A stretch of DNA of 52,791 bases, filler included, from Porpidia crustulata (lineage: Eukaryota): assembly GCA_964255105.1 (NCBI GenBank). It is 4 parts of 4 records of this genome, joined end to end, with 100 filler letters (N's around TTAATTAATTAA, not from the genome) between each part and the next. Parts side by side here need not be neighbours in the genome. Positions count along the whole stretch, not along the records: positions 26,460 to 39,576 come from CAXUWE010000459.1; 3 more parts are not named here. The stretch is one strand, 5' to 3'. The notes below the pieces were generated by a model, which was given only the letters and a program-made list of their open reading frames with translations, was not told the DNA's origin and did no database searches. Numbering within the stretch: position 1 is the first letter of the stretch; each line of letters starts with the position of its first letter. Positions 2,425 through 39,676 of the stretch are shown here, piece after piece. The position numbers and the translations under genes are program-made.

Positions 2425-5400
2425 CTATTGGATCCACCCCAATTTCTTTGCTTCTTCCCTCGCAGGAGTAGCCTGTTGCTGCAACTCAAGCGAAACGCTC
2501 GTTGCTTCTGCTAACGTAGTCCTTACCCTGACAAGCTCTCTCGGATGGCTTCTAGAGATTTCGCCAGCTTCGGCTCCTCTGCTTGTCTCGATTTGGCTCT
2601 CAATACTCGCGCACATCTTAATGATATGATTATTGACGTTGTTGTAGGTGTTAGTAAGTGTACTATTTATAGAGGTTCTCACTGAGCTAGCGATGATTCG
2701 AAAGATGTCTCCCTGGCGTAAGCGAGCTTCCATGATGGCATGCATACGTCGTTCCATCCCATGCCCGCGTTCCAAGGCACAAGCACGGTAGGTAGGCAAC
2801 ATGACAGTAAGTATTGATGAGCTGTAATGGTCGCCTGTTGCATTGTAACGAATTCTTCTAAGATGTTGTTACTAATGTCCAGACTTGAGACTCTAAAAGC
2901 AAACCTAATTTCCTGGCTCAACTTCGAGAGCTCTTCGTGCACCAAGTACCCAAGCTCCCGTTCCTTCAATTTCATGGTTGTCACCAAGCTCTGTGAAATC
3001 TGCAAATCTACAGAGCCATCAGTAGCGCCCACGTTATTGTTGGGCGAGGGAGCTCACCACGCATCTTTTTGCTCATCTTAGAGAGCTCTAATTGCATGAA
3101 ACGCGGTACTTCGTCCGCTGCCTTATCAAGCATATTGGTGAAGTCTGCCCATCGGTCTTTAAGATCTTCGTTCATTTGCTGTAGAAGTTCATCATTCCAA
3201 CGTTTGAAGCCCTGAGCTCCAGTCTGATGGGTGCCATCATGCCTGGCCCAGGCTTTGTAGGATACTTGTATCTGATATCAGATCCGATCGATCCAAGGTC
3301 ATGCTTGACTTTCCAATGCTTACTGTGATGCCACTATACGTGAGACGTCAGTATCTACGTCGTTTTTTAAGGGCGGAAGCCCTACAGATAGCCATTTCTC
3401 GCTGGCTTCGCGAGCTTTGTCATTGAAACAACTCTCTCGTTCTCCTAGACGAGGTCAGCTTGAATATCACAGGCAAAATTAAATAGATTCGTACTCCAGA
3501 AGTCTAGGATGTGAGTCCCTAGACAGTCGTTGACTGCATCTGAGAAGGCGTCGACCTGCCCCGATAGTTCCTTTGAAGGTTAACGAACAATCATGTCAGA
3601 ATATGTGGTAGTCCTACCGACTGAAGCTCTGGAATGCAGTCTAGTGGGACCAGAGGTGGCGCACCTTGTTCCACGGACGCCATCCATACTTCTAAGGATT
3701 GGACCAGGTCCGGTATTTCAACATCCAAGAAGTGGTTCGTGACCCTGAATTGGGCTCGTGCTACCACCGAGTGGCAGAAATGGCGAAGCTCCGGAATGCC
3801 ACTGCCTGGGATTAGGAGGTTTCGCGTCTCACCGTCCCAAGACCTTTTGCTCCCCATTTCGTAGTCATTGTTGCCAATGCAGAACACACTAATATTTGAA
3901 TTTCCTACATCAGGTTCGTACCTCTCAAGGACCTTCCTCCTGACGGAAGCGTTCCTCGCCTCGACATAGACATACTTGTATCTGCAAGTGTCAGCTACAT
4001 TGTTGAGTTGAGGGAGCATATTACCGTATCTCAGCCCGCTGTTGTTCTTCTGTGATGCCATGTCCTCTTCGTATGGAATCGTTCACAATCTTGAGTGCGC
4101 GTGTCGTAGCTAGCTGTGTTACAGCTTGATACTGCTTTTCACTACCCTTAAGGTCGATCACCTGAAAATATCATCAGGTAAGCACGTTTGAAGACAGCAA
4201 AGACCCACATCAGCGTGCGTGCAAATGACACAGATGTTCTTGCTAATCCCTTGCTTAGGATCTAAGCTACTCCGAACAAATCGGTCGACACTTTGATCTG
4301 TCACGGCTCGTTTGATGTTCGCAACAACAAAAATATCGTCACATTGTACAAGGTATTGCTCTGCTCGTCGAACTCTAGCAAGGTTGATGTCGCCGAAGCC
4401 TACGATTCATTAGGATGTGATTGACGCCGTGCAGGGGAAAGGCAATACATGCCTGGTAGATCTGCAAGTACGGTTCCTGTCTTCAGGACTTGAGCACTAA
4501 GATAGATTCTGTGAGTAGGGCCATGTCAGCATCCAGATTTGGTATCTGCCTCCAAGAACGCAAAGCGATCAACGTACCTGACTATATTGGTCAATGGCCA
4601 AAGTCCATTCTCCATGAACTGTGCTACTTTTTCATGACACTCGCTGGCGTCATTCGCCGTCGAGAGCCAGCGACCGTCTTTCGCTCCAGCAGGCCATTTT
4701 AAGGACTGGGCGAGGCCTTGCAGATCGCTTTCTATTTCCTCAAATGTACGATCCGAATTCCCTCCCCACGTGCCCCGAAGGTATTCCTGCTCTATCTCCG
4801 GACAGTCTGGGAAGATGCTCTGTAGTGTAGACAAGGCGACTTCTGACTTCTTCTCTATATTTCGATATTCATCGTCTGATAATAGCTCTTCCTGTAGCCC
4901 AGGCCTGTAGATGTGTCGATAGCTGAATATTAGCTCATGGAGCTGCGCTTTGATCTCTTCTGCGTTGGCGTATTCGACCTCGATCGTGAAGGGCTCGTGT
5001 TGCTCCGGCTTATGCTTTCTGTACTCGGTGACGAAAGATGTAACTGCAGAGCCATGATCTCCCTATGGTCTTAGATTAGTTCTCATTGTCAGACAAGGAG
5101 CCGTTTCTTCAGACCGTGGGCGCCAAATCTGGTAGGTCAAGCAGGGAGTTGATCAGACTGCTTTTCCCTACGCGCTATCATTAAATAAAGTCAAGCGACG
5201 AAGAAAGGAGGCTCGTACCAGCTGCAGAGTCTCCTACTATAGCAACCGTTCGGCTCGCAGGGCTGTCAAAGCGACTAAGCTGTGAAGCGCGTTGTTTTAT
5301 TTTATAAAGCTGTGAATCGCCTCGATTCGCCACCTCGCACTGGCTTAGGTGACTACAGACATCGCCTACAAGCGTTTTGGCTCTCTTCAACGCCTGTTGG

Positions 5401-7140: not shown

Positions 7141-10128
7141 TATGTTCAACAAGCTTCTTGGAAATTCCTATCTTGGCCGAGTTGCCGGGGTAGCATATCA
7201 GCAGACATGCAGTTTTCAGACATTAGAGTAGCAGATTTGGAGCTGATATCTTACTCCAGACGTGTTTCTCTGCAGATCTAGTTCATAGCTTCTCTCTATA
7301 TCCTCAGGTAGAAGGAGGTGCTAGTAGTAGCCAGTACACGTGCAAAGTCACGTTTATCCCTCCAATATATCTAAAAATACGACACGGAGTTCAGCTGTTC
7401 CTCAGTCGCAACAGATGATGTCTAGGTAACAATGCTTCAACGCCGTTTTCAGTGCTCAGATCGCTTTTGCAACAACAATGCCTCTGGACATGCTTAAAGG
7501 TGTGTTCTAGACTTGTGAGCGTTAGAGTCAACGAAATACTGTGCACGGCGACTGTGATCTGTCTTGTCATCATTCAAACAGCGATCCAGTCACACTCGCC
7601 CCGGGGAAATATGACAATCTTATGCCCGAGATTTGGGGAGAGTGCTAGGGCAATAGCACCTAGTGTACCATTAGGCGTGAGTGCCTAAACGGTTGAGCCA
7701 CAGCACTTGCACATAATCTCCTCCCGAGATGAAGGTCGGAAAATCAGGAGTACGGTAGCGGTACTAGTAACTGGGGAAATGACCCTGAATTATGGATTAT
7801 TATTAAAATTTTAAGGGTAAGATATGGCGATCATTTCTTGGTGTAATTGTGATGATGCTTGCTCTACCACAAAATCCACAGTCGGACAGATCTGCCGACC
7901 ACGCCGACGAAGCAATGAGATGCGCTAAGACGTGTTCCTTTGCAGATAAGCGAAGATTCGTGGCACAATTGGCACATTTGGCACATTCTGGCTACCAGGG
8001 GAACGTGACCACTAAGCTGGCACAAGATCATACTTGCATACCTATTCTACCTACTAATTAATTACCAAATATGGGCTACCATAGGGAGACAAGTACACAA
8101 GAAGCAGAACTTGGGAGGCTAAGAGAATAAGCATTTCGCCCTATGGTTGTAGTACAATGATATCGTCGTCAGCCCGCTAATAATCACTCTGATAGACAAG
8201 CCTACGGTCATTGCGGTTTTCCGTCCGTCCCTCCGTACGCAATTGGCCCACTTGAGACTTATCGGCACACCCACTCGAAACCACTCTGCTGCGGTACATA
8301 CAGGATGGACTGATGGAGAGCATGGCATTTCGACTTTACCAATCTCGCTCGTGCTCGGCAACAGGCCAGGAAGGGTGGTCAGTTATCGGATTGGGAGAGG
8401 CCTGCTTCTGTTCGACGCCGATAAGACGTCCATTATCGATAATGGCGCCTTCGGGGCTAGCTGACATGTGAACGTTGGGAATGGGCGAAGAAGTGGAGGA
8501 TAGCTGCATGCACCAAGGCCGACCGACCTTGGCGCTGGTCCCGACGGACAGCATAAACGCTGAACAGAATAAGGTACTCGCAACATCATGACTTTCCTTG
8601 TTATGCAAATTCGTCTGGTATCCCGCACGCCGGGCTCATCTGTAGTACCGGCAGCACAACAATCAAATAACCAGCCTGCCCGCTCTAACTTTAATTTCTT
8701 CAGAGTCTTTGCGAATAGCCGACAGTCGACAGGAACAAGAGGAACAACCGCTCATGCCTCATGGAGAGCAGAGTTCATCCCCATCGTCAGGGTCTATCCA
8801 CGATCAAGTGTCCTACGAGCCTACCAAACTTGGGATCGCTGTAGGAGTTCCGGCATGCTCAAGATTGCATGTTTCGAAAGTGGGGGTGGGTGCATAAGCT
8901 TGGTGATTGCCCGCATCAATTAGAATCCAAAGGATTCGGTCTGTGCGGCTCAGTGTGAAAATCAATACTCGATAGGATGAAGTGGTCTCCGCTTAGCTCC
9001 TGCTCTTCATCCCCTTCAAATCTGAAGTTGGCATTTCCAGACCTATCTTCAAGACGTTGACTCAACAGTAATCTCATTGTTGATCCAGATGAACTACGGA
9101 CGTGTGGAGTAGTGAAACCCCCTTTCAGCGACGCGTCTTAGACTTCCAGTTGGACCCAAGTGACGCCTTCCCTAGTATTCATGCGCTAGTGGCAGTAGCG
9201 AGACGTGACCCCTGTCCCCCAGTAGTGGCAGCTACAATTTAACAGCCGTACTCCGTATTCGTGCACAACAGACACAAGAGCATTTGGGGGCCTGGTTGTA
9301 TATCTTCTCTATCCACCATCATCAACACCACTACCGCTTCATCGGCCACGAATACAACTCGTTGTGCCTTCTCCCGATCATCGTGGCCAGTGTCTTCTCC
9401 TTCTCCATTGCCTTTAATTGCTTGTAATTGCCCCCCATTCCAATTGCCCTTACTACAACATTCTTTCTCCCGTGTCCCGGGATAACTTTTGCTTCGCTAC
9501 CAAACTTCGTAATCTGTACGCTCCAGGGGAAAATCTCCATCAATCATCAAATCTGCTCAATCCGCCGCCGTTAGATTCTCTTGTGTGCCTGAGCCGCCCA
9601 TGAGGGATCGGACGTGCCGAGTAGACAGTCGTTCTTGACGGATACGGTATCTACTTTACGGCCTATTGCTTCGATTTGAATCTACTCTGAGCCGCCAGCC
9701 GAGAACTACGGTACAGTCAATTTTTCCACTGCTTCAAACACTTCGACGATCTCGCCGGCCATTGACGATACGGCCAATTCTATTCTATCACTGTCTTTGT
9801 AGTAATTTCAACTCTTGGTTACCCACACAATCCTTCAACACCTACCTTGCCACCACGGACCGTACGTCTGACCTGGAAGTCTAACCCCTCCTGTTGAGCC
9901 CCTTCACTTCACAGTAGAATCATGCTCATAGCCCAGGGACGGGCTTTTGCAAGACCTCTTCAATGGTACTCATGCTGACATCTAAAATTGGTCTAGGCAG
10001 GTAACAACCATCTCTTCCCACCTCAATAAGCCGTCCACCTAAGGATTACATACCACCCATTCCTCTCCCGGCTTGAAGCCTCCCCACAGAATCTCTGAAG
10101 GACGTCAGCTCTATAACAGCGTTCCATA

Positions 10129-12865
10129 ATGGCTGCTTTGGTGCAGTCCTTCCCTTCACCTTCGTCAACGATCACAATGCTCCAAACACGTCCATCGTCA
10201 TCCGATGCGTTTCAGACTGGATCACAGAACCAACAGCATCAACGTAACTCGCCAATGCCGAGAAACATATACAACACGTCTGTGGGAGGCATGGCGGCGG
10301 GAAATTACCGAGGCCACACGTCCACGCCCCCAGTCAGCCCATATGCGTTCACGTCGACGCCTGTGACGCCGAATGGTGGAAATCCACTTCGTCAACATCC
10401 TACGACCCCACATCTTCGTCAGGAGAACCGGACCACCTCTGCACCTACAATACCATTTACACAACAGACAACATCGCTCAGTACAGCCACTAATCGGCCT
10501 CGTCTGCCAGCAGTCAGTCCACTACCTTTGGACCTGGGGAACGCCTTTTCACCGCAACAACAAATGAACTCCAAAGACGATACGTCAATCACATCTTCTC
10601 ATATCAAACAGATCAATCCGAGGCCGCTATCATCGATTGAACTTAATTCCCCTTCATTAGCCACGCCTCCGCCCATCACAACTACCGCCAAACCCTCACC
10701 TGATCGTTATCGCCGTAATAATCGTCGGCCTGACACGCAAGGATCTCCGGGAGCTATAATTACCCAAGGTGGATCCGCCCCACCCTCTGGCTCTGGTATG
10801 GCAACAATCGGTCACCTGTACAACATTCCTACGCAATCTAGCAGTACACCCTCACTGTCGACTTATCCCTCATATAGAAGATCTCAGTCACCCTTATCTC
10901 ATAGCGGAAGTGATGGCTCTTCTGCTACATTAATAAGCTCGGATGATATGAACCTGCCTAAACAGTCTATATCAGAGCAAGCCAAGAGATATCGTAGGAG
11001 AAGTATTAGTAGCTTAGAGGCGAAGGAATATACATCCCAATCGTTCGAGGTACCGATACCACCATCAACCCCACCAAAAACTTATGCCGCGATGCTTGCA
11101 AGCCCTGCACCACAAGAACGAAAAGAGGCCAGAGGCCCTACTACGTTGCAGCGACCTGACTCATCTCATGGCCGTCAAGGCAGTTCTGAGAGTGCAAGTA
11201 CTGGCCGGTCCAACTCAAGACCACCTTCGGTAAGTAGAATCTTTCCCCTGCACTCCCTGTCTTGCGGGTCAGGAATGTTGGCTGCACCTCATTTTCATAT
11301 GGCGGCCTCCGAAAACGTAGCTTACTATTATTTCAGTCCAAACGAGAAGGTGCGACCACTTCAACCAACCCTGCTACTCTACAAGCGACCCCAATTGCCA
11401 GAAACGAAGCGAAGATTATAAATATTCCTCCTCGTGGGGCTTCAGATGCGAACAAAAGGCTCACGAATCCATCCCCATTATCGCGGCCTATGCATATGAG
11501 CCCTGAATCTCCTTCGAATAAAAATGCCTTTGTGGCCACAGTGCAGTCCAAATCTCCCGAGACTCCTACACCTCAAGCCGGCATTCCAGAGAGCCCGGCT
11601 GCTCAACATCTGGCAGCGCTCAACAAAAAAGACGCAAAGAAAGAGGGAAAGTCCTCGAGGTTACGGCGAGCGTTTTCGTTTGGGAGTGCCGCTGAGCTAA
11701 GAAAAGCCTCCGCCGAAAACAATATGAATAACAACGCATCCGCTGAGCGTGCGAAGCTGAGGAAGGATCGTTATCAAGATGAGCGTGAAGCTGAACAGGC
11801 TGCTATTGTACAAAAGCAAGAGGCAGGAGGACTGGGAGAAGGCATATATTCTGGACAAGGTCATTTCTTTACTGGCTCCACCGACAACCTCTCGATCTCC
11901 TCAACTGCATCTTCCGCGTCTGTCATGATCCGAAAGATGGGTAAGGGAATGAAAAAGGGCTCTCGGTCGCTGGTTGGGCTCTTCCGACCGAAGTCGGTCG
12001 TGGGGGTACCACCAGCGGACTCTGCTGTTCCTGAACCGAGCGTGGCCCAAGTTTCGATGGTAACAGTCGAAGCTGAGCGTGAGAAGGTTAATGTTAATGC
12101 AAACCCTCATGAACAAGCAAAAGGTGGCACCGGGTTTCCTAAATTGGAGAGAAACTCGATCGATGCTGCTAGTGCCGGTATGGAGCCATTTACAGCCCAG
12201 AACGATTTTAACGAAATCTCGCGGGGGAGACGGAGCATCGTCGGTGGTGAGAAAGAACGGGCTGAAGTACTTGCTGCGGTCAAGAAAGGCATCTTGAAGC
12301 GTGGGTCTTCCCAAGGCTCTGTGGTGGAGTCTTGACTAACAACAAGTAGGAAGCGGCACCGACTCTGGAAACTCTTCACCTGTTGTGCGACCTGTTGACT
12401 CGAAGTCTGCTTACTTCGACCTCCCTCAAGTCCCTCAACTGACCGACTCGCCACGTTCCAGCTCTCCACATAGCCCGGCTGAAGGAAGCAATGGGCGTCT
12501 TGGTCATCGGAGGACCGATTCTGTCAATTTGGACGGTGAAGAATACTTCATGAGCGTGGCAGCGAATTATGCTGGAGGGGATTCAAAGAGCATGCCGGGC
12601 ACACCGCGGAGTAATCCTTCTCGCAATATCAGCTTCAGTCCTCGCATCCAGTTTCATGATACATGGACGAGTGGGGAATACGATCGAAGAGGAGAGATTG
12701 CAACTTGCAATCGATTGACCCCAATGCTAGCTCAGCAAATCAAGGAGGAGCTGAATACCTTCAAGATGGTAAGCTGATTAGCCTCGTCATCTGCAAACCT
12801 TACTAAAGTTGGACCAGGAAATGGAAGTTCATGAAATGTCTAAAGTGCACACCCACTTCTTCTAA
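10129..12865 (+). CDS. BNI4: Bni4-like PP1(Glc7)-targeting septation/bud-neck protein, 4 exons
   Basis: Exons 10129-11229, 11337-12300, 12350-12768 and 12818-12865. Long Ser/Pro-rich region, then KKGILKR and the conserved C-terminus NISFSPRIQFHDTWTSGEYDRRGEIATCNRLTPMLAQQIKEELNTFKMEMEVHEMSKVHTHFF. Confidence 0.85.
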
Positions 12866-13134: not shown

Positions 13135-13234
13135 NNNNNNNNNNNNNNNNNNNNNNNNNNNNNNNNNNNNNNNNNNNNTTAATTAATTAANNNNNNNNNN
13201 NNNNNNNNNNNNNNNNNNNNNNNNNNNNNNNNNN
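13135..13234. other. Artificial contig-joining spacer
   Basis: 44 N + TTAATTAATTAA (stop codons in all six frames) + 44 N. Confidence 0.97.
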
Positions 13235-26359: not shown

Positions 26360-26459
26360 NNNNNNNNNNNNNNNNNNNNNNNNNNNNNNNNNNNNNNNNN
26401 NNNTTAATTAATTAANNNNNNNNNNNNNNNNNNNNNNNNNNNNNNNNNNNNNNNNNNNN
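26360..26459. other. Artificial contig-joining spacer
   Basis: 44 N + TTAATTAATTAA + 44 N. Confidence 0.97.
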
Positions 26460-27717
26460 ATATATATAGTATCCTTGAGTTTCAAATATATAGTACGGCG
26501 GCATTGTTTCCGTGTTAAAACTCACTTCGTGCTCTTGCTTCCTCTCTACTCTCTCATGCTTCCTCGATGCTTTCTTGCTGCGCCTTCTGCTCCCCCTTGC
26601 TCCCCCAGTACTCCCTTATCGCTCTTCCTTGCTCTCTCTCTGCTCCTTTCAAAGCGGCTCTGCTTTCTTTCTCGATCGAAAACGACAATCGCAAATCTTA
26701 AATTTCGAGGCGTATATAATTCATATGGGGAACTCGATATCTAGCCGACTGGGTGAACTCTGAAAGGCGCAGATGGTTCTCGGACAGAGGGGTTCGAAGT
26801 TTGATACGGGGTTGATTGTGAGAAGATAATGAGACGGTTTATAAGATTGATGAAGGGATTTGTCGAGGAGAATGTTGGGAGTTGAGGCTGTGTGTTGTGT
26901 TGTATTGAATCGATTGAAGAATTGTGAATCGGGAATTTTGATACAACGACAGGCTTCATGAGGATGCATCATGTAGGGTCCAAATTCCGGCTTGGCTGCT
27001 CGGGGACACAGATGCGGCAACTCTGATCATACAAGACCGTCGTCTAAGGGAATAGCAGGATTGCTTTTAACAAAGCAAATTCGGATATGTGTAGTAACAA
27101 TGAATGCGTACAAGATAGGTCGAAGAATATTGAGGGAAACAAATCCTATTGCTCATTCTCAACATCATGTCCTCCTTCGTCGGCAAGCGGGCAAGCTGAG
27201 AGAACCACACTTGTATTAGATGAACTAATAACCAATAACGAGTTGAAGTCGTAATTGAAAGCAACACGATATGCTATGATAAATTTCAATCCCCAAATAT
27301 GACCAACATCATTCTTATCCAAAGTCTTCTCCGCTGCCTGAGCCTAATTCCGCCCAACTTCAAGCCTTTCGATTGGACTTGCGCCAAGTATCCCAAGTTA
27401 TTCTCTTGCCTTGATTGCGCTACAGCCACGCGTCAGGAGTAGTACAATCTTTCCTAATCAAAATGAGAGACCAAACCATAGAAACAGGAGGTGCCCGCAC
27501 GGAATTTTCTTGACTGGCAATGTCAATACGAAACGCTATAGTCCATACTTAAAATATACAAAGACGAAGATCGAAAGGCGCCATTTAATTAGCGCCGACA
27601 AATAGGCTATAATCGAAAAACGACGACGCGGTAGTACTATCAGAAGAACGTGACCATTGATTTTTGGAACCCAGATCTCCTTTATGAGCGTCACTATGAT
27701 GACTTGCGTCGGTCCGA

Positions 27718-28270
27718 CTAGGCCGTCACTGGTACTATCCCACTCGTAGGATGAGCCAGTGACACTTGCGACAATGCCGCGCTTTGTAGGTCCGATTTCA
27801 GCACGTATAAGGTGGAGAGCTTGCCAAGGAGCCGCAAGATCTGGTTTACGACACCCAGTGGAAGCCTGTCAAGGTAGAGTTTCATGAACATGACGTTACT
27901 GTGTCCATCCTTTGTGGCATTATCTGTCGTTGGCTTTGACTCCGTCTCCGGGTCAACGAAAATGGTGACTTCTGTTCTTCTTGGCGGGAGCTGAACCTTA
28001 GTGTAGTTTTCTATGGACCGCAATATGTTAGTTGCATCTGACAAGATAGGCTGAAGATATTAATGTAAGATGAGTCGCTCTCGCACCTTGAGCAATTGAG
28101 GATTTATCCTGCACTTTCACAGTGCCTCGATCCGGATCAACCACTATAACTCGATTCTTCCAGGGCGGACTGGGAGTTTTGCCACGGATCTTGAGGAATT
28201 GATGTTTCGTCGGCACAGGCTCGTCCTCAGATGAAGTTGGGCACGTATCACTATGGAGAACCTTTGCCAT
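27718..28270 (-). CDS. Small protein of unknown function 'X1' (about 158 aa), paralog of 34016-34553
   Basis: Two exons, intron 28011-28086 (GTGCGA..CTAAC..TAG). Protein includes PWKNRVIVVDPDRGTVKV...QENYTKVQLPP..TEVTIFVDPET...HSNVMFMKLYLDRLPLG. Supported by a paralog with the same intron position and phase. Confidence 0.8.
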
Positions 28271-29563
28271 ATATAAGGAGAGGTCGGTGATAACTAAGCT
28301 AAGAGGTGCACCTCTATGAGCCCAAATACCTAGTATGAGGTTGATATGTGCCCCGCTATGTAACCTGGGCAATACTGAACTTGCAGGACGCCAACATCCT
28401 TTTATTGTTGTCAGGCATATATTCAGCCTCTGGGATTTCTGATACGTACACTGCTTCGAATCCATTCGAGCCAAGGTCGTGGTGTATTGGGAAACAAAAT
28501 GATTGGTTTTAAAACCCAAGGCTTATTTTCAGAACAACGTGGTATACCTTACAGGCCCTGCACGTGCCTCAAATACCTTAGGCTTTCCCCAAGGCATTTT
28601 CGAGAAGGCGACTGGATCTTGAGAACACCCTACCTATTTCATTCAGGCTAGGTGTGTATCAAAAGTTTCATATCAAACCTGGAAACATATTTAATATAAT
28701 ATACGTTGTGATAATCGCTTCTGATTTTTCCAAAATTCGCTTTGCTGTTTTGGGTGCGAAGCGCTGTACAAAGATTTGCTTGTCATATCGGGCGAGACTT
28801 GATTGTATAAGAGAAACATCCTTGCAAATACTCGTGGGATACCTGAGATGTTATATTACTAAGATTCCTGTGAGACGCCCCTGCGTGGCGTTCGAAGTCC
28901 TTCGACAATGGCCTTGCGGATACACCTATATTAGCTAGCAAGATGAGGTCTCACGGGCGTCCATAGATCTTTGAATATATGAAGCGGTGTGGAGGTGCAT
29001 CGGGTAGAGCGCGCAGATGATGTTGTGAGAATACCAGTGGTTCTGCATACCTGTTCTTGTAATTCGCCTGCAGACGCTCTGCTGTGGGCCTGTGGCGTGA
29101 TATCTGTTTCTCGTGTTCCTACCTGCCTTCTCAGAGTGGACACCAACCATTCACCTCATTATCCTCCACACCATATGTTTGAGATTGGATCATCGATGCA
29201 GCGCTGATCTCTTGCTATTGGCAATCGAGAGCTTGGCTGATCCTAGAGCCTTGTCCATCAACCTCCGAAGACTAGTTAAGACTTGAGAATACGGGGAACA
29301 GTCTACATCAGCTTAGAATGCCGGCTCAGCGTACAAGGTACGTGATATTGGAGGCTCCTCTGGCAGCCTTCTCAACGAGGCTGTTAATAATGCAGAATAA
29401 ACCCGTGCTTGCGGCTCTTCACTTAGTCTAAGCCAGGATAAGTACCTGGGAAGGACCACATAAGTGGTTCGCATTAGCTTATTCTCGCAATCGTCTCTAT
29501 CCTTAATGTTTTTTCTGGCGTCCATAAGCTCGTTGAGACGTTGTTAACGCGTCAAGACGGCCA

Positions 29564-31456
29564 ATGGACGATATAGTGCTTCCCTTACATGAAGAACCTG
29601 GGACAATTGGGGGATCTACTGATAGAGACGCTTGGAAAGATTATAATTTACTCAGCTTAGGTCGGTACAAACCTCTAAGACGACCTTTCAACGTATTCTT
29701 ACTCTTTGACAACGTAGATGGCGGCGGCATTCGAGGTTATTGGAGTCTTTTGGTTCTCCAATTACTCATGACATATATTGCTGAGAAGGAGGAAAATGAG
29801 CTAGAAGATGCATTGGTCTATTCCAGCTTTCACCCGGAGGTCTTCCCCCCAAATGTGTCTCACGTGCCTCCCTCGGGCGACGAGAAAGAAAGAGTGAAAC
29901 AATACACAAACCACGTTGGCAAACAGCGTGCAAAGCTCAGGCCGCGGAGATACCTTCCATGTCATTACTTTGACTACATATGCGGTTCTAGTACAGGAGC
30001 GTAAGTTCACCGGTGTCTTATAGCCAAAGCCCCATCATCGCTGATAGCGCCGGTAGACTGATTGCTATCATGTTGGGGAGGCTTCGGATGACTGTGCTTG
30101 ATTGCATCAAGGAATACGAAAATCTTGGCGGGAATGTCTTTGGAAAACCACGCTTCTTCACAGGGCTACATTTCCCGGTCATCACAAACAGAGCCAAATA
30201 CGATGCTGATAAGCTTAAAGACATCTTTGAGAACGTCACGAGAAATCGCGATCGACAGACTGAAGAAGACCATCAAAGCACGGCCTTCCCCTCCGAGCGA
30301 GATCTATGCCGAACGTTAGTATATGGCCTCTTTCGCTTTGTTCTGACTCTACCTTCGTCTTCAGTTTGTTTGGAGAAGTTGACTTTCTGATGATCTGGCC
30401 GGGCCATTCACAGCGTCTCGTTTTTGACGTTGTCGTCTCTGCCCTACATGCTTACCGCTGCACAGGTTTGTCACTACATTTCGAAGCATCTCAAGGGACA
30501 CAGGTGCCGCCAGACTGCATCTTATTCGATCTTACGATCATACCCCACGAAACAACTCTGGTCCTCTGATTACACAACCACGGAGAGCGACCGAGCGATC
30601 GACTCGGTCTAATACCGGAGAAAGTAACAAAATCAGCTTGCGTGGACCGGAGAAGAACCAGTCAACCAGACGTACCATCAAATACGGCATAGCACATAAC
30701 CTGGAGATTTGGCAGGTTGCTCGTGCAGCAACTGCGGCTCCTTGGTACTTTGACCGTCTCAAAATCAAGGTTGACGAGCGTGGGTCTGACATGTACTACC
30801 TGCTTTTCACAGACGGAGGCTTTGATTACACGAATAATCCCACAAAAGAAGGTGTATCGGAGATCAAGGAAGCCCGGGGGCCCGATTCAGTGAATACTGT
30901 TGTGAGTATCGGAACCGCAAGATACAATGAGCGACAAGCGGATAGTTTCAGATCAAGGATCAAAGGCGTAATTAATCGGGGCACGGACCCTGAGCGAATT
31001 CATGCAGATATGGTAGAAGATAGTAATAGAAGCGAAGGCGGGTTCTCTTACTATCGGTTGAACGCTCCCGGCTCTTTGGACGTGGAACTTGACGAGTGGA
31101 AACCAAGAGCAAAACCTTTTGGCATAGAACCTGGTATAGAAACGCTGAATAAGATACGAAATGCTTTTAACGAGTGGGCCAGTCTTCACGAGACAATTCA
31201 TAAACTTACGGATTGCGCAGCTGATCTAGTCGAACGCAGAAAGGCCAGGACTTCCGATAGAGCGCAGTGGGAAAGGTATGCTACTGGTGCCAAATTTGTC
31301 TGCTACTTCCAGAACTGTGAAGAGAAGATTTTCCATAGGGGCCGTTTTGAAGAACACTTGGCCCTGGAGCATGGCGTACAGCCTGGTCTCATGTCACAGG
31401 TTGTGGAAGATTGCAAAAAGCAGTGGCGTTACCCACCCGCACCCAATGTACATTGA
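29564..31456 (+). CDS. Patatin-like phospholipase with C-terminal C2H2-type zinc finger, 4 exons
   Basis: Introns 29661-29717, 30001-30056 and 30315-30465. Motifs LLSLDGGGIRG, FDYICGSSTGALIAIMLGRL (nucleophile Ser), IWQVARAATAAPWYF, FTDGGF (catalytic Asp), VSIGT and YYRLN. The tail CYFQNCEEKIFHRGRFEEHLALEH fits C-x4-C-x12-H-x4-H. Confidence 0.92.
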
Positions 31457-31763
31457 TACTTAGCGGGTGAGACTTGTCGCACGGAGTTGTAGGCGTCGGG
31501 GCATAGATCGATAGATACCCTGCCGCGAGCGTTTTGCATACATTTGGAGTTGCAGTCGGCTGCTTGCTGGTACTGCTCGGTATCTACGAGGGACCAGGTG
31601 TTTGGATTCTCGCCGCAACGATTCATTGATTGCCATCATGTACGAACAAAAGTAATTTACCAAATAGCGTAGACGTAGACTAAATGTTCATAGGAGTTGT
31701 AACCCGAGTCAATGTCGGTTCAACTTGTCATGGATATATGAAGATTGCCACATGTTTCGCACA

Positions 31764-32091
31764 CTCGTGCTCGTCCCCAACGGCACACGCTCAGCCCTAT
31801 CGTTAGGGGCAGAGTTACCTGAATACACTAGTGTATCGTAACCCTTGCTCTATATTGAGCACGGCGAGGTGTTAAATCTTTAATTTAGTCTTTTTCGACC
31901 TTCGAACATTAAAACTTTCATTTAATTCCGGTTGAAGTAATCGCGACACGCTGTCGATAAAATTTCTTATACAATATGGATGCAATTATTGGTTTGATAT
32001 ACTCTAGAAGTTCAACATGATGTTCCCATTTATGTAACTCTAACCCCAATGGTAGGGCTTAGCGTGTGTCGCTGGGGAGCGACTGAATGAG
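31764..32091. mobile_element. About 330-bp degenerate MITE with roughly 60-bp imperfect terminal inverted repeats
   Basis: Left TCCCCAACGGCACACGCTCAGCCCTATCGTTAGGGGCAGAGTTAC versus reverse-complemented right TCCCCAGCGACACACGCTAAGCCCTACCATTGGGGTTAGAGTTAC. Mismatches are mostly transitions, the core is AT-rich, and the flanks are TA (32092-32093) and CA (31762-31763). Confidence 0.72.
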
Positions 32092-32820
32092 TACCTTATG
32101 AGTATTTTTTCGACTCAGGATTTCTCGTCAGTGAACAAACATAGTCTCGCCCGATTGACTACTACTTGAAGTCATTCCTCCAAATTATCTTCTAGCAGGA
32201 CTTAGATATCTATTATCTTCTACCTAGCCCTACCTTCGCATCCCCCAATTTGATTTCTATCATCTGGCAATCCGGTGCTCACCCATCGATCGTTCATTCC
32301 CTAAGGACTGTGTGCCCTGGAACTTTAGTCCCAGCACCCATTTATTTGTGTCATCGTGACATTCCGTTTGGGCAGAATAGTCATAGCTTGCCTACCAATG
32401 CCCAGCAGGCCTAGTCTCTATGTGAAACAGGCTGTGGCCTTTTTCAGCTGTGTGACCCCCCGCAGCTAGCTGCTATCCACGGGCGCATCTAGTTACTTTC
32501 TATTCTCACCCTCGACGCCTTCAAGACGTGATGGGATTCTCCTTCATTACAAGGTAGGCTCACAAATTCAATTCCAGCCTAGCCAGAGCAGCCTACAAAT
32601 TCGAAAGTATCTCATGCACGGAACAATGAGTCTTGATACGCCCCGCCGCAATGCTGCCAGAGCGAGCTCTCCAGCTGACCTTGACTAGCGCGAACCAAGT
32701 TATGACAAATAAGAGCCTCTTAAACAGAGTCATATCATGGAACTCCGGTGCAATCAAGGTACGATTTGATAGTCTTTGAACCTGGTTTGTATCGCCTGCT
32801 CGACTGATCATTTTGGACTG

Positions 32821-33846
32821 ATGTCTCAAAAAAGCACTTTTCCCTATCTGTTTAATACATTTCTTGTATTATCTGTTATGCACCAAGCAGCATACACTGC
32901 AGATCTGCATAGCAGTGATCCAAAAACTATTGCTTACCCCCTTCGGTTTCAGCGCCTTCTGTCCACCCTCATCCGACTCCTCGTTCATCTAGTTACCCTA
33001 CCCTACTACCGTTTATTCCAATTTAATACCGGCAAACCAATCTATCGGCTCGCGACCTACGCCTCTATTCCAGGGCAGAACTCGAAAGTAATCCACCTCA
33101 TCGCACACTGGAGGACACGAAAGCTTGCAGAGCTGCAATTCATCTCCATTGCTGTGCGAAGCCTCCTTTATATACTCATTCTCTCCCTATCTTGAATCGT
33201 ATCTCACACTTCTTAGTGCGCAGTCCTCGCCGCAGCCGTAATCGGCGCTTTCTCCTGGACCGCCATACCCAATGCCTACTGGATCTCACTAGCGCTCTGG
33301 TACTGTAGCCTTGTGCTCTCGATCCTCGGAATCTTGGTCGCAGCGCAGCAAGTCGCGGTGCTCACCCTCTTAGGCGAACCTAAAGCCAGTGAAGCAAATG
33401 TATTTATACGGCACTATCTTCCCCTTTTACTGACGGAAGTTGGCGATCGTGGATCAGATGGACGTTTCTTGTCAGACGAGAGAAATCCCGGCACTTGGAG
33501 GCCACGGTGGAAGATGGTGTTCACTTGGCAGTGCCCGATGATGTTCACATCGTATTCAGTTGTATTTTTCCTCGCGGGGTTGACCTTGTACGTTTGTACG
33601 CCTCTGATACGCGGAGCGCAATGGAATGAGGGTGTGAATGTAAGTTGATCGTGGCTCGTCGACCCAAAGCAAAAGACGGAGATCTGACGCCTGATGAAGA
33701 TAGCTACCGTTTTTCTTGCTACTGCCGCGATTGCAGGCACTTCTTTCATACTTTGCGGGTATTGGATCTACCACTATATTGATTTGGAAGATATATTCGA
33801 AAAGCAGGGGGACAAGGAAACAGAAGGAACAAGTGTAACTTTATAA
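32821..33846 (+). CDS. Four-transmembrane protein of unknown function (topology reminiscent of DUF6535/PGG-type domains), 3 exons
   Basis: Introns 33154-33216 and 33640-33699; alternative start 32878. Four hydrophobic segments: ELQFISIACAVLAAAVIGAFSW, YWISLALWYCSLVLSILGILVAAQQ, WQCPMMFTSYSVVFFLAGLTLYV and IATVFLATAAIAGTSFILCGYWIY. The family resemblance is inference. Confidence 0.8.
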
Positions 33847-34015
33847 ATACGACGTAACGGAAGAATCTCAAGGTATACGTTTTACGCAACCCCTTAGGCT
33901 GGAATGATATCATTGGTTGAGTCAATTCCGGCACATGGTATATAGCTCTATAAGATAACATCCAAGTTATGAGTGCTCTTGTTGCTAACCTGTTGGAAAT
34001 AGTACTTTCTCGATC

Positions 34016-34553
34016 TCAGAACTGTTGAAGGTTGTGGCAACCCTTTTCAATATCCCCAAACTCCACCTTCTTCTCTTTCTCCGTTCCTTCGATCGTGTCC
34101 ATTTTCGTTACATAAACCGTCTTGATCATCCTCAATTTTCTCAGCAAACGACTGCAAAACCCCATCGGTAACCTATTGACATATATCGTCATCAACATAA
34201 CGTTACAGTGCTCATCCTCTGTCGTATCTCTTAGTGTTGGCCGGGACGCTGTTTCGGGATCGACAAAGATGGTGAACTCGGTTGTTCCAGGAGGGATGCT
34301 CAGTTTGGTGTGGTTTTCTAAAAAGCAAAGGGGGCAAATTTGTTAGTGATGGACTTTGTTTTGGGAATCAGGGTCGCTGAGGGTTGTCAGGTATGATACC
34401 TTGGACAATGTTGGTTTCATTCCTGATCCTGACCGTTTCACGGTCAGGATCCACAACGATGACGCGGGTCTTCCACGGTAGGATGAGGTCCTTCGAAGTC
34501 GCAGCTCGGAGTTGCGGTGGTTTGAGCTCGTCGGGAGGCGAAGCCGCGGACAT
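34016..34553 (-). CDS. Small protein of unknown function 'X2' (about 151 aa), paralog of 27718-28270
   Basis: Two exons, intron 34318-34399 (GTATCA..CTAAC..TAG). Protein includes PWKTRVIVVDPDRETVRI...QENHTKLSIPP..TEFTIFVDPET...HCNVMLMTIYVNRLPMG. Confidence 0.8.
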
Positions 34554-35910
34554 TTTCGCTCAGGATGATCTTTTTGTATATCTATTATGGGACTTACTGC
34601 TGCGAGAATCATCCGAAGAATCGTGGTAAAATTTGCAGGTCGAACAACATTAATAAAGATCTTACCTCTTAACAAGGGGAGGATTGTGTCGTATCATACA
34701 TCTACTCATACCTGACTAACCGCGTGATGAGCAAACAGTCACATGTCGTTCAGCTTCACTCATCGTCGAGCCTGGGAATGAGTAAAATCACGTCTTCGTG
34801 CCCACTGCAATTAAATTGATTCACATCTCCCCCCACCCAAGCCCCTAATCAAAATATCTAAGCCTCCTAACCCTGCTTCACCGATTCAATAGATATGAGC
34901 ATTCCAACCGCAAGATCGCATGACCCAGCAGACGATCGCCTGTGGCATTGCTCGGGTTCGTACTCGAATCGCACGCTTACAGCTTCAACGCAGCCGCCCT
35001 CAGTCGAAAGAGGTTTGCCACCCACAACCACACTCTTTCGCGTTTCTTGCTTCACGATCCTCAGCCGGCACACAACATTCCAAAATCCCCCATCCCTCCT
35101 CCCAAGCTCTCTCGACCACACTCCCCTCATCCTCTTCCAACCTTCCAACCCCCGTTGCCATTCCTACATCCCCGCTCCGTTCGCCGAGGTCCCGCTCCAA
35201 CCGCCGGAGTTGAGCCCCTCTCGGATGAGTAGAAGCCAACGACTTTGGCCCGCGGTAATTTGATACCTTCGCCGAGGTCCCGTGCAGCCTAGGAGGATGT
35301 AGACATTTCCTGGAACTTGGATGAGATCGGTGATCTGGGTGGAGATACTGGAGAGCACACCGTCGCGCGGGTGACGGAAGAATTGAAGCCTGCCCCCTTT
35401 GCATTTTCTGCTAATGGAGTATTGTACTGTAATTCATAGGTAACTCTTCATTTCCTACATACCGTATAGCAATGATAGGGTATCAATGAAGATATGGATG
35501 TAGAATCACATATCAATTATATTAGAATCCGTCGTTGGGGAGGAGGGGAAGCGTCCAGCTGTTCCGTCACCCGCGTACCCCATTACGCTGATTACGTTTC
35601 TATTCTACGCCCTGGGTGAAATATACCCCGTAGGTGTGAGGTTCAGGTGCAGTCAATTGCATGGTTTGTGTAGATATTTGGTTAGATTTCTTTCTGGTAT
35701 AGGTTTAGGGCTACAAATCGCCGTACGGATTGAGGCTGACGCTAGTCTCCTGGAGGTTAGACCTAAACTTGAAGGGCAGAATCTGCACGGTAGGTAGTAA
35801 GTAGTAACTAACGATTCTACCGTTCACTATACAACTCATAGGCTCGCAACGACCTTTCGCCATCCAACGTGCCATCTTGCAACGAATCAGCGAACGATAA
35901 CAGACACTTT

Positions 35911-37635
35911 CTACCGGATCTCCCATATCATTTCATCCCGTGACTCGCAGCAAGCGGAAGAAACATAGGTGAAATTGTAGAAACACCCGTGCGCCTCCTT
36001 CTCCAGTGGCAGTATTAGATCATCAAGCGCCCGCCCATTGAAGCTTGAAGTCCCGGCCACCGCGGCCACCGTTAGACACACTCCCTGAGGAAACAACGGA
36101 TCGAGACCGAGCTTCTTAGCCTGCGCTGTGCTTGGTTTCCTACAATTACATCCCTTGCGCTCGTCGGCGTCGCAATCGCTGGGGCCTTTACACTTGCCTC
36201 CGCATTTCCGTTCACCGACAGTGGCGGATTGGGAAGCGGGCCAGGAAACGTTCTTTGCTGTCTGCGGCTGTGGTTGCTGTGGCTCCGGTCCTGCTGCTTT
36301 GAAGCTTTCGTCTGGTGGCGAGCGGGGGATTGGCCCGAACGCGTCCGGCCAAGGAGCGATATAAATTGCTTTCTATCAGCTCCATACGTACCGGCGGAAG
36401 GTCCGGGCACATTCTGCGGTGGAAGGATCTACGTAGACGTACCCCCTGCTTGTGAAACGTGTACCGAGCCGTCATCTACGGTGAGCATTTCAACGCCACG
36501 GACGAACTTCTAAAGTTTACTGGTCGAACGGCTCCACTCCTGGTCACGTTGACCGGAGTTTTCGCACCTGCAGTTCCTCCAGCAATGATATCGAATCGCT
36601 GCAGAAGCGTAAAAGCTTCTTAGACTATAACCCCATGTCCATTCCAGACGCGGAGTCATGTCATCCGCGAACCAAACCACCCTTGGCGAATCCACGGTCT
36701 GGTGTTGTCTGCGACAATATCCCCCTGCGTTTGCGTTACTGGTGTAGATCACTACAAGTTAGCGTGTACCTCAGGCGCGTTGGAAAAGAAACGCGCTTAC
36801 TCGTTGCCGCCCGAGAGTCCAACTGCACAAAGCGCTGTGTTATCTTCGAAGTCGGTTACAGAAAATGGCGGAGGTAGGGGAAACCTTGGTAGTTCTCCTT
36901 GACATTCGATGCGATTGAGTTGATGGATCCCAGTATTTTCTCCGAACCAATCTCCAGTACCACGTTCACTGGAGTCATCTTGACGGGAGCCATGTTGAAG
37001 GGAGAGGCGTTGTTGAAAAGCGATTTGGCTGCCGAAACGCGCGTATGTGACAACTCAGGATTAACTCCCGTGCGTAGGCTCGCAAGCGAAGAGCTGTCCA
37101 GCGTTATGGCAAATCAACTGGACGAGTCCGGCAAAAAAGGGTTAAGCCAGTCAGGTTCGTCCCACCAAGACGAAATGTTCGGTTTCTGGGTGGTGTCTTG
37201 TAACCCGAAATTGCAGAAACAGCGTGCCCGGCACTGTAGAATTGCGCGCATAAAAGCCCCAAACCCGGGAGGTTCGTGCAAGATGGCCAATGCTTGAGGA
37301 GAGGAATCATCAAAGATGAGTATGGACAGCTCCTCGTCATAGAAAGCGCCCAAATTCCCGCTCGAGGCTCGCCCCCTATACTGAGTCTTGGCACATAGCT
37401 GCTGCATGGAGATAGAATTGAGATTGATCCCGTGCCATTTCGGTAGGTTCAGACTTGAGCTGGCCCCGAGACAAGTCAAGTTAGACTTTAGGTTAGCCTC
37501 TCTAGGATCAAGATTCTCCTCTGCTAGGGGATGTGCCAGGTCATAGATGGCGTTAGCAGCTGCGAAAAGGCAGGTTAGAGACACTAACGGAATTTGAACA
37601 GAATTGTTCGATGGTATACACCCCCGGAGTCCCAT
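35911..37635 (-). pseudogene. Pseudogene of a secreted cysteine-rich protein with two tandem LCA..GG..N.GG.C..C...C.C units
   Basis: Signal-like LVSLTCLFAAANA. Unit 1: QQLCAKTQYRG..NLGAFY..CRARCFC. Unit 2: ALCAVGLSGG..NAGGYC..CWRNCRC. C-terminus CGGKCKGPSDC..CNC..GCFYNFTYVSSACCESRDEMIWE. In-frame stops at 37114, 36510 and 36429, plus at least two frameshifts. Confidence 0.75.
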
Positions 37636-38036
37636 GTTGATAATGGATCTTCCAGAGCATTGGAATTAGGATGAAAGATGAGATCAGCACGTTAAGCCGA
37701 ACTCTCAACTTACTGCATGAATCATGGATGCAACGAATGTATATGCCAAAGATGTTCAGCGCATACAGAACCAATTACAATCTTTCCGAAAGTCGCGTAA
37801 AAAAAAAACCCTCTAATTCATCGAACAGATGTATATGCGTTGCGGGTAAAACTTTAACCGCTGCGCAAGTACGGTTGGGAACAGCGCGACCATTCGATAA
37901 AGGACTAGGATATCTTAATGTAGCTTGTATAAACAGTCCGCTTAGTCTGGTGTTCTTCGTATTCCCATTTTCCTCTGCGTCCTGTCCTCCTTCCCGCACC
38001 GCTTGCATTACAGGCTTCAAATAGTTTACAAGAAAC

Positions 38037-38215
38037 TATTTAAATAAATTGTAAAAACTGCAAAATACCGCTCTAAGGAAAACTTTAGGAGTATTCCGGG
38101 CCTCACCTATTGAAGCAATGCAAATAGAAGCCGAAATTCCGCCTGTAGAACTGCGGATGGATTAGAAATGCAGGACTTTCAGGCTTCGGGTCACGATTTT
38201 AAGAGACAAACCCAA
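38037..38215 (+). mobile_element. Mutated fragment of a non-LTR (LINE, Tad1-like) reverse-transcriptase ORF, thumb/connection region
   Basis: Reads YLNKL*KLQNTALRKTLGVFRASPIEAMQIEAEIPPVELRMD*KCRTFRLRV, matching the LINE pattern LQ.LQN.ALR.I.GAFR.SP..A.E.EA..PP...R. The TAA/TAG stops are consistent with mutated CAA/CAG; surroundings are AT-rich. Confidence 0.75.
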
Positions 38216-38859
38216 AAGCTGACGTTCTATCTCCTCTTTTAAATCATACCATATACGCTGTTCTAATACCTTAAAAATTCTCTTAACTTTCGCTATTGAG
38301 CGTACTAAGATTTGATCGAAGATTCTTCGTTAATAAACGAGAATTTAATAATAGTCAAATTATTATTCAGATAGACTCAATGATCTATAATAAGCAATAA
38401 GTAACATTTATCGAGTCCTTTACTTAAACATTTAACGGTCCGCGCGGACATCCTCAAGGAACTTGATTTGTTAGTATTGAAGTCGAATTTTGTGATCAAA
38501 GCTCTGACAACTCTGACTGTTTGCTAAATAAAGAAGATTTTCATACATCTAACGTGAGATTTACTATGTACCAAGCTATACTTCTTGGAATCGCGGAATA
38601 ACAGGTCATCAGGATACACTTTTCACTTATAATGTGGGTTAAAGAATAGCACGTCGCGTCCGGAAAACGGAGACGAAAGCAAAGGAGTAAAAGCCATGTA
38701 ATGGATCATCCACGAAGCGGGCATGGCCAGGGGTATTTGGGTTTTTGAAAGACGGAGAGAGTAGCTCAAGCCAAAGGACTAGGGATTCATTTCAGGCTAC
38801 CCACCTGTTGCGTCCCTACGCCTTTGCTCCCTCGGTACTCCCCTCGGGACTCCCTCGAT

Positions 38860-39400
38860 GCTCCCCCGTGCTTCCCCGTGGATTGACTCTTCGTCCACGG
38901 CGCGATTCACACCAACGATGGAAGGAGCCGGGAAAGAGTTGATGCGTGTGCCAGAACAGATCAACATCAAGGGGTCGGCATATTTGTTCCCATCACACCT
39001 TTCTCGTCTGTTTTTCATCAGCGGTATAAACATATAATACCTATGCGAAGCCGTTGTCAAGTTTCCATCTCACTTCAGATCATTTAGTCGGATATTTTTT
39101 TCCATGAGAATGATTGCTGTTCTCGAAACCGCAGCAAACAGGATCGAGGCTGAGACTTGGGCCAAAGACTTTCAGAATACACCTGTCGGATCCCAGGTAA
39201 CAGGCATCTGTTCAACGCAGGCGTGCATTTCCTTTACGGCCTCCCCTTGCGTCTCGTAGCCTACATCTTCGAATTTTAGCCCACATAAAAGAATGGTCAT
39301 TCATGTGTAGGTACCTCCGTATTGAAGACACGCGTCCAGATCCACACAGGCCAGATCAATAAGAGACTTTCCGACTGCGGCTTTTCCGATTCTCCGATTA
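38860..39400 (-). pseudogene. Frameshifted DUF1399 / glycine-rich-domain (GRDP-like) gene relic
   Basis: Across several frameshifts it reads LFAAVSR-QQSF...ASHRYYMFIPLM...MPT-LDVDLFWHTHQLFPGSFHRWC, matching the family hallmark PTLD.DL.WHTHQL. Boundaries approximate; it may extend to the contig end. Confidence 0.7.
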
Positions 39401-39576
39401 ACAGGTATTCCTTTGATGTCGTGCAGCGCCTTCTCCGGATCATCACCGGCGATAAATTGCTCTGCGTCGTCGCGCAGATGAGCACCGCTTACAATTTCAC
39501 CGGTTTCTTTGCCTTCTTATCCTCCCCCTCTGCCCTCCCGCACACCTCTTTAGCCCCTCCCTGCAGTGGTAAATTG

Positions 39577-39676
39577 NNNNNNNNNNNNNNNNNNNNNNNN
39601 NNNNNNNNNNNNNNNNNNNNTTAATTAATTAANNNNNNNNNNNNNNNNNNNNNNNNNNNNNNNNNNNNNNNNNNNN
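39577..39676. other. Artificial contig-joining spacer
   Basis: 44 N + TTAATTAATTAA + 44 N. Confidence 0.97.

Follow-up and report, generated by a model that had tools for sequence, protein, structure and literature searches.

We analyzed a window of 52,791 bases from the fungus Porpidia crustulata (GenBank assembly GCA_964255105.1), in which a gene for a patatin-like phospholipase lies between a divergently oriented gene for a small soluble protein, here called X, and a gene for a protein with four membrane helices, here called 4TM. Judged from sequence comparison, X, patatin, and 4TM may well be, with about an even chance, an old and selected three-gene unit of the Pezizomycotina built around a predicted active phospholipase A of the patatin type. 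The trio retains one order and orientation while its flanks change, and pairs of the three genes are adjacent in several fungal classes; from this we infer that the trio encodes one functional unit. Conserved nonmetabolic gene clusters are rare in fungi, and when one of them persists across classes amid unrelated neighbors, its proteins usually act together. The window consists of four contigs of about 13.1 kb set end to end, with three N44-TTAATTAATTAA-N44 spacers between them, so that statements about “this contig” are valid for one piece only. That piece is the third (positions 26460-39576), a complete 13,117-bp contig that contains the whole block of genes; the protein database lists the patatin ORF of the window (P0027) on a contig of exactly this length.

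The cluster links a patatin lipase, predicted to be active, with two families of partners, neither of them represented in Pfam and one of them without a clear relative among known structures. Three sets of “hypothetical proteins” from lichen fungi and crop-associated Dothideomycetes thereby become one testable unit, and the cluster offers a way into the control of a free-standing fungal patatin lipase. The openly licensed full-text literature, in which we found no account of the X-patatin-4TM arrangement, suggests that it has not been described, although a description elsewhere is possible.

Gene models

Four intron-bearing genes make up the block, in the order X1 (minus strand), patatin (plus), 4TM (plus), and X2 (minus), and every spliced frame is intact. 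All of the introns are of the GT-AG type, with lengths of 49-151 nt, and the spliced models match full-length homologs nearly end to end. On this evidence the first-pass annotation of this DNA was right about the four genes, their order and strands, and their intactness after splicing.

X1, a small soluble protein of 167 aa, is encoded at 27718-28270 on the minus strand (exons 28270-28087 and 28037-27718; GT-AG intron of 49 nt). Of the two X genes, this one is at the conserved place, divergent from the patatin gene. The patatin-like phospholipase, of 542 aa, is encoded on the plus strand at 29564-31456 in four exons (29564-29660, 29718-30000, 30057-30314, and 30466-31456) separated by introns of 57, 56, and 151 nt. 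The 4TM gene follows on the same strand at 32821-33846 and encodes 300 aa in three exons (32821-33153, 33217-33639, and 33700-33846; introns of 63 and 60 nt). X2, a divergent extra copy of X with an intact model of 151 aa, occupies 34016-34553 on the minus strand (exons 34553-34400 and 34317-34016, intron of 82 nt). X2 and the 4TM gene converge, and 169 bp separate their stop codons.

Other gene-like sequences in this contig had been described as riddled with stops or frameshifts. That description did not hold up: with the four genes set aside, none of the 36 open reading frames (ORFs) of at least 70 aa in piece 3 matches Pfam at E≤0.05, and there is therefore nothing recognizable in the piece to call broken.

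Conserved linkage across genomes

A scan of metagenome contigs anchored on X gave 14 loci, which were then searched with the exons of the window. Three of the loci are only about 1 kb long, four carry a pair of distant X-like genes (L011-L014), and the remaining seven (L003 and L004-L009) hold X(+), patatin(-), and 4TM(-), the same order and orientation as in the window. L004-L009 belong to one species and are 98-100% identical to one another. In a six-frame comparison of the window, L003, and L005, only X, patatin, and 4TM match; the flanks, taken to about 5 kb past 4TM and 10 kb past X, have nothing in common at E<1e-5 (1e-4 for the comparison with the window).

Annotated genomes contain the same neighbors. 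The locus tags of X and patatin are consecutive in three species: Circinaria calcarea (Q9187_003334/003333; contig of 12.8 kb), Trapelia coarctata (MMC30_006778/006777; 006775 is a second patatin), and Pyrenula ochraceoflavens (Q9227_006252/006251). The X gene of Bacidia gigantensis (KY384_002979) adjoins a merged patatin-4TM model (KY384_002978), and this genome therefore has the trio. Patatin and 4TM are combined in one gene model, with patatin at the N terminus, in 3 of the 51 4TM matches: the Bacidia model just mentioned, Boeremia exigua OPT61_g3396, and Chlorociboria aeruginascens B7494_g5222. We read the merged models as adjacency and not as natural fusion, because the Bacidia merge cuts the Cys2His2 motif of the lipase (see below) and a second Boeremia annotation has a separate 4TM. 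Patatin and 4TM are found on contigs of equal size in Lindgomyces, in Clohesyomyces, and in two ENA contigs (one only 5,928 bp), and X and patatin of Lentithecium are on one 2.06-Mb contig.

The linked pairs span the Lecanoromycetes, Eurotiomycetes, Dothideomycetes, and Leotiomycetes, all within the Pezizomycotina. The class was checked in the taxonomy for Pyrenula, Chlorociboria, Bacidia, Boeremia, Circinaria, and Trapelia; for the other named species it is the class to which we take them to belong. Gene co-occurrence had been proposed at the outset as a test of the block, and the trio does recur in other genomes in unrelated surroundings, with pairs linked in four classes. The proposal that two X genes bracket the module stands in part: X1 and X2 are paralogs in this contig, but a second X beyond 4TM is present in none of the seven trio loci, and the second copy is a peculiarity of this contig.

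The patatin-like phospholipase

Residues 5-535 of the patatin model align with residues 9-560 of P0054, a 569-aa homolog from Sticta, at 47% identity, and a search with exon 4 gave 192 relatives. The glycine-rich oxyanion loop (G-G-x-R/K) is present as DGGGIRG and straddles the junction of exons 1 and 2. The nucleophile elbow (GxSxG), read from the sequence as GSSTG at 29984-29998 (+), is also seen in the homologs P0054, P0084, P0120, and P0131, and the D-G-G motif with the catalytic Asp reads TDGGF at 30812-30820 (+). Of 43 aligned sequences, at least 90% keep this Asp (D355 of P0054). In an exon-by-exon scan, the Pfam family Patatin (PF01734) scored 23.6 and 18.0 bits on single exons of the window (E=6.9e-5 and 0.0035; cut-off, 27.7 bits); the full-length homologs P0054 and P0131 are above the cut-off with 70 and 66.5 bits, respectively.

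The C terminus of the protein has a Cys2His2 knuckle, C-x4-C-x12-H-x4-H, at 31301-31372 (+). At least 90% of the sequences in the alignment of 43 retain its four Cys and His ligands (C515, C520, H534, and H539 of P0054), and the spacing of these ligands fits the classical C2H2 pattern C-x2-4-C-x12-H-x3-5-H. No zinc-finger Pfam family was detected at E≤0.01 in the nine patatin-bearing sequences scanned (six stand-alone and three merged models) or at E≤1 in exon 4 of the window gene, and we therefore name the motif a Cys2His2 knuckle and not a member of zf-C2H2. An NB-ARC or NACHT domain followed by repeats was not found after the patatin domain; PF01734 is the sole family in the protein and its homologs, and the model stops at 542 aa.

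The nearest solved relatives found with the lipase profile are iPLA2beta (6aun; E=5.3e-7) and CapV (8zr9; E=8.9e-5), an effector of the cyclic-oligonucleotide-based antiphage signaling system (CBASS); both are weak matches that cover profile positions 234-365 only. When one full-length patatin homolog was compared with the PDB, no chain matched at E≤0.01.

Two patatin copies are present in Circinaria, and two adjacent ones in Trapelia. The paralogs of Trapelia coarctata, P0056 (MMC30_006777) and P0058 (MMC30_006775), are two locus tags apart and stand beside X (006778); the gene between them, 006776, might be a 4TM or another X.

The 4TM protein

The 4TM model matches P0152, a homolog from Viridothelium, at 50% identity (residues 44-292 against residues 19-270). 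Its start codon is the least certain point, as the homologs align only from residue 44 on. With exon B alone as the query, 51 homologs were found, distributed over the Lecanoromycetes, Dothideomycetes, Leotiomycetes, and Sordariomycetes; Neurospora, Aspergillus, and Fusarium are absent from the named matches of this heuristic search, which is a weak negative. The AlphaFold2 (AF2) model of P0152, with a mean predicted local distance difference test (pLDDT) score of 83 and a predicted template modeling (pTM) score of 0.75, has long helices at its N terminus, then four membrane helices, and also a small hairpin.

4TM belongs to no Pfam family. Exon B of the window scores 14.5 bits against DUF6535 (PF20153), for which the cut-off is 23.9 bits; the same family is seen below threshold in 8 of 38 members of the 4TM family (best E=0.011) and above the cut-off in P0158 (27.4 bits), and DUF3522 is seen below threshold in 9 of the 38. 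The ESM Atlas returned only unnamed Ascomycota clusters together with a DUF6535 lead at 0.85.

In an unfiltered structure search with the 4TM model, the top row was the Orai chain 4hkr_A (131 residues aligned; root mean square deviation, 4.7 Å), the only one of 48,161 chains with Z≥8; its Z of 8.6 is to be read with the proviso that for helical bundles a value below about 13 may mean shared packing only. Foldseek gave the highest probabilities among membrane proteins to Orai chains 4hkr_B (rank 30) and 6bbg_A (rank 38), at 0.66 and 0.54. The 4TM profile, run against the PDB, found no Orai sequence even at E≤10, and the near-invariant 4TM positions include no conspicuous acidic residue that would line a pore. 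Orai, the calcium release-activated calcium (CRAC) channel, resembles 4TM in having four membrane helices after a long helix, but the two have no sequence similarity; Orai and Pfam DUF6535 are leads for 4TM and not memberships.

The X family

X1 and X2 are 52% identical over 75 aa of exon 2 (E=8e-29) and 63% identical over 27 aa of exon 1 (E=8e-12), and their introns are at the identical position; by these protein-level matches they are paralogs. No match between them remains at the DNA level, and the duplication is therefore old. X1 keeps all 18 of the near-invariant positions of the family and X2 keeps 12. X2 has its best match in X1 (50%) and sits on a long branch of the X family tree, which was made by a quick method from 146 rows; 73 of its 143 branches are open, and its resolution is too poor to place X2.

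A profile of X exon 2 detected 26 small proteins, and the three of them with names come from lichen-forming fungi. Against 1.84 billion representatives, the X profile gave 181 clusters, of which 30 were looked up and 8 had names: Bacidia, Pyrenula, Lentithecium, Alternaria, Trypethelium, Bogoriella, Icmadophila, and Lambiella. The idea that X is lichen-specific was rejected on finding homologs in Alternaria, Lentithecium, Pyrenula, Trypethelium, and Bogoriella.

No Pfam family was found for X. The AF2 model has a pLDDT of 79 overall, with ten-residue blocks of the core at about 84-94 and values above 90 over most of residues 40-135, and the order of its secondary structure elements is beta-beta-alpha-beta-beta...beta-alpha-beta. 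As modeled, X is a real folded protein of a small, compact alpha/beta type. Its most conserved part is a strand plus loop, VTIFVDPETESKPTT...DGxSN, which looks like a putative binding or modification site. A Foldseek search with the X model gave no match at E≤0.001 (best E, 0.16), and many of the weak rows are ubiquitin-like or beta-grasp proteins. With VIA-align 2, no chain in the full set of 48,161 representatives reached Z≥5, the best value being 3.7, and a second look with the same program at the top Foldseek chains gave a best Z of 3.5. A relationship of X to beta-grasp domains is a guess only. The ESM Atlas gave nothing usable for X.

The four loci L011-L014 hold a convergent pair of distant X-like genes (L011:9497-11375) that are 37-42% identical to X1 and keep both family motifs. 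Neither patatin nor 4TM is present within 10 kb of this pair, which is surrounded by housekeeping-looking ORFs; one neighbor, read from its ORF translation and not from Pfam, we take to be an inositol-3-phosphate-synthase-like gene.

Intergenic regions

The divergent region between X1 and patatin (28271-29563), which measures 1,293 bp between the two start codons, is presumed to be a shared promoter. No shared motif emerged from the corresponding spacers of the window, L003, and L005: they have four 8-mers in common against 1.8 expected (maximum of 8 in 100 shuffles) and no 9- or 10-mers.

The spacer between patatin and 4TM (31457-32820) is ordinary intergenic DNA as far as tested. It had been annotated as a miniature inverted-repeat transposable element (MITE), an assignment that we do not retain: neither inverted nor direct repeats of at least 14 nt (seed 9) were found in 31400-32900, and a second copy of the spacer is absent both from the window, with its four contigs of the genome, and from the 14 metagenome loci. 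Lacking both terminal inverted repeats and a second copy, the spacer is not a MITE as far as these tests reach. The sole repeat-like feature is a perfect 14-nt palindrome at 31823-31836. The patatin-4TM spacers of homologous loci measure roughly 1 kb.

Polymorphism and selection

Alleles were compared in a relative and not in the species of the window, with a small sample of five haplotypes (L004=L007, L005, L006, L008, and L009) of one species. The whole locus differs by about 1-2% among these haplotypes, and the coding parts vary less. The proportion of nonsynonymous sites that differ (pN) is at most 0.0043 for patatin and at most 0.0092 for 4TM, the synonymous proportion (pS) is at most 0.019 for both, and X exon 2 is invariant; the coding parts contain no stop codon. 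This pattern points to purifying selection on X, patatin, and 4TM. The first-pass annotation had the entire block kept by selection, which is sustained for X1, patatin, and 4TM by their conserved order, unrelated flanks, and low pN, but not for X2, which is particular to this contig. Allorecognition (het) loci are expected to have very divergent alleles within a species. Because the five haplotypes of this one relative are almost invariant, allorecognition with balancing selection, which had also been suggested for the block, is disfavored.

Possible function of the three-gene unit

If the three proteins do work together, the lipase would be a soluble, regulated enzyme that acts at a membrane marked by the 4TM protein. 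4TM could be a docking site or activator of the lipase, or else an oligomeric channel responding to the lysolipids that the lipase makes. X, expressed from the presumed shared divergent promoter, could be a soluble regulatory subunit, as either an inhibitor or an adaptor, and X2 would be a lineage-specific, fast-diverging spare copy of this regulator. The output could be regulated cell death or defense, or else lipid and ion signaling. Complex prediction with the Sticta patatin P0054 (residues 20-569) and the Trapelia X protein P0012 (residues 25-150) scored 0.00 in both runs, which were done without alignments and with an uncertain fold for the partner, and speaks neither for nor against binding.

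Several points weigh against a single functional unit. The merged patatin-4TM models prove adjacency only, and contigs of equal size are indirect evidence of linkage. Among the 18 X matches on contigs of at least 5 kb, 5 are paired with a patatin contig of equal size (within the best 120 of the 192 patatin matches), and the remaining 13 are uninformative. The linkage of X to the lipase in Dothideomycetes rests on one contig, that of Lentithecium. The lipase is not an obligatory companion of X, as the distant X-like pair of L011-L014 stands alone in assemblies that hold the trio, and the three divergent spacers have no common promoter motif.

Patatin enzymes are death effectors in fungal, plant, and bacterial immunity, and the trio might likewise execute cell death or defense, without a NOD-like receptor (NLR): the patatin would kill as in Neurospora PLP-1, 4TM would be the membrane target or pore, and X would restrain the lipase until a trigger arrives. 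We consider this unlikely, if the least unlikely of the alternatives. Fungal NLRs can carry patatin domains as N-terminal death effectors, and cell death by PLP-1 depends on its patatin domain (reviewed in PMC10197012). The window lipase shares with the NLR patatins PLP-1 and Podospora HET-Z, which are fungal and cytosolic, the PF01734 superfamily, the Gly-rich loop, the GxSxG serine, and the DGG aspartate. It differs from them in lacking NB-ARC or NACHT and repeats, in ending in a helical region and the Cys2His2 knuckle, and in having 4TM and X as its steady companions in place of SEC-9 or an NLR; PLP-1 is set apart here by description and not by sequence comparison. CapV is among the closest solved relatives of the lipase (8.9e-5), and the families look patchy and expanded, with two patatins each in Trapelia and Circinaria and, more weakly, with model genera missing from the named 4TM matches. 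However, no NLR, HET, HeLo, or amyloid-motif partner is encoded in the 13-kb contig or within 10 kb in L003 and L005, and the conservation and low polymorphism suit a housekeeping-type role equally well. Less probable again, and best called a speculation, is a specific scheme for an NLR-free executioner of cell death or membrane signaling across the Pezizomycotina, in which X would hold the lipase inactive, a trigger would free it onto an Orai-like 4TM channel, and lysolipids would open or build an ion-conducting pore. If that were true, fungi would have a three-gene counterpart of the immune modules that combine a phospholipase with a membrane effector, and 4TM might be their first Orai-like channel among the filamentous forms. 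An improbable reading makes the block a toxin/antidote or het-like allorecognition unit, with the duplicated X genes as immunity or specificity factors. X is closely linked to a potentially membrane-damaging enzyme, and it is duplicated in this contig, but in none of the seven trio loci. X exon 2 is invariant and fewer than 1% of the nonsynonymous sites of patatin and 4TM differ among haplotypes, the opposite of known het loci (in a small sample of one species), and the unit occurs in four classes and so is not lineage-specific and selfish.

Microsynteny can persist in fungi, and the three genes could be neighbors by descent alone, with no functional link; direct DNA evidence for the trio comes from only three lineages (the window, L003, and L004-L009). 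Yet the trio has the same order and orientation in these three lineages amid unrelated flanks, and pairs are adjacent in different classes. With lipases at about 40% protein identity and nothing else conserved, neutral retention of three neighbors is unlikely, and we think descent alone very improbable. A lipid-gated ion-entry module has a still slimmer chance of being correct. By analogy with animal iPLA2beta and store-operated calcium entry, 4TM would in that case be an Orai-like oligomeric channel gated by lysophospholipids from the lipase. iPLA2beta is reported to modulate store-operated calcium entry (PMC13378579 and PMC2737609). Orai heads the structural rows for 4TM and has the highest Foldseek probabilities among membrane proteins, and of the solved proteins iPLA2beta (PLA2G6) is nearest to the lipase profile in sequence; both iPLA2beta and CapV match the profile across the part of the fold that holds the catalytic Asp. 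These resemblances are offset by a Z under about 13, which may reflect packing only, by the failure to match an Orai sequence, and by the want of a conspicuous acidic pore-lining residue. In addition, iPLA2beta is merely the nearest solved patatin, and it has ankyrin repeats, as CapV has a cyclic-nucleotide system, whereas the window lipase has neither. Least probable of all is that a giant Starship carries the block along as cargo, with the patatin as its “PLP” auxiliary gene. Patatin-like phospholipases (PLPs; PF01734) are listed as one of four Starship auxiliary gene families (PMC9156397), and a preprint describes a Starship of a lichen fungus that carries one (bioRxiv 10.1101/2025.11.25.690456). 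Such PLPs are, like the window gene, patatin-domain genes of Pezizomycotina that are apparently able to sit in changing surroundings, and unrelated flanks would fit movement of the block as a unit. The other hallmarks, however, namely a DUF3435 captain, DUF3723, a ferric reductase, or an NLR domain, turned up neither in the 13-kb contig nor in L003 and L005 (20 kb each), though Starships reach at least 100 kb, and in L005 an ordinary RSN1/PHM7 channel gene adjoins 4TM.

Surroundings of the block

The flanks of the trio in L005 contain, at 673-3249 and 12464-12841, the RSN1/PHM7 gene (calcium-dependent channel family) next to 4TM and a fragment of a Ty3-type retrotransposon integrase beyond X. 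In the window, the 5-kb right flank of the block includes a 153-codon open frame at 35911-36372 (-), Cys/Pro-rich and with no Pfam match, which may be a gene for a small secreted protein.

The spacers between the four contigs are at 13135-13234, 26360-26459, and 39577-39676. The pieces other than piece 3 contain ordinary intron-bearing fungal genes with strong Pfam matches and long open exons. These matches include Dak1/Dak2 (dihydroxyacetone kinase), SPT21, an S10 carboxypeptidase, DUF1264, a tetratricopeptide repeat (TPR) protein, Btz/CASC3, an NBR1-like protein, KARI (ketol-acid reductoisomerase), and a PALP enzyme. Piece 1 also has, at 10117-12335 (+) and 2425-2868 (-), a pair of long open frames that overlap (434 and 365 codons) and have no Pfam match, plus a C-terminal fragment of DUF7605 (E=6.9e-13).

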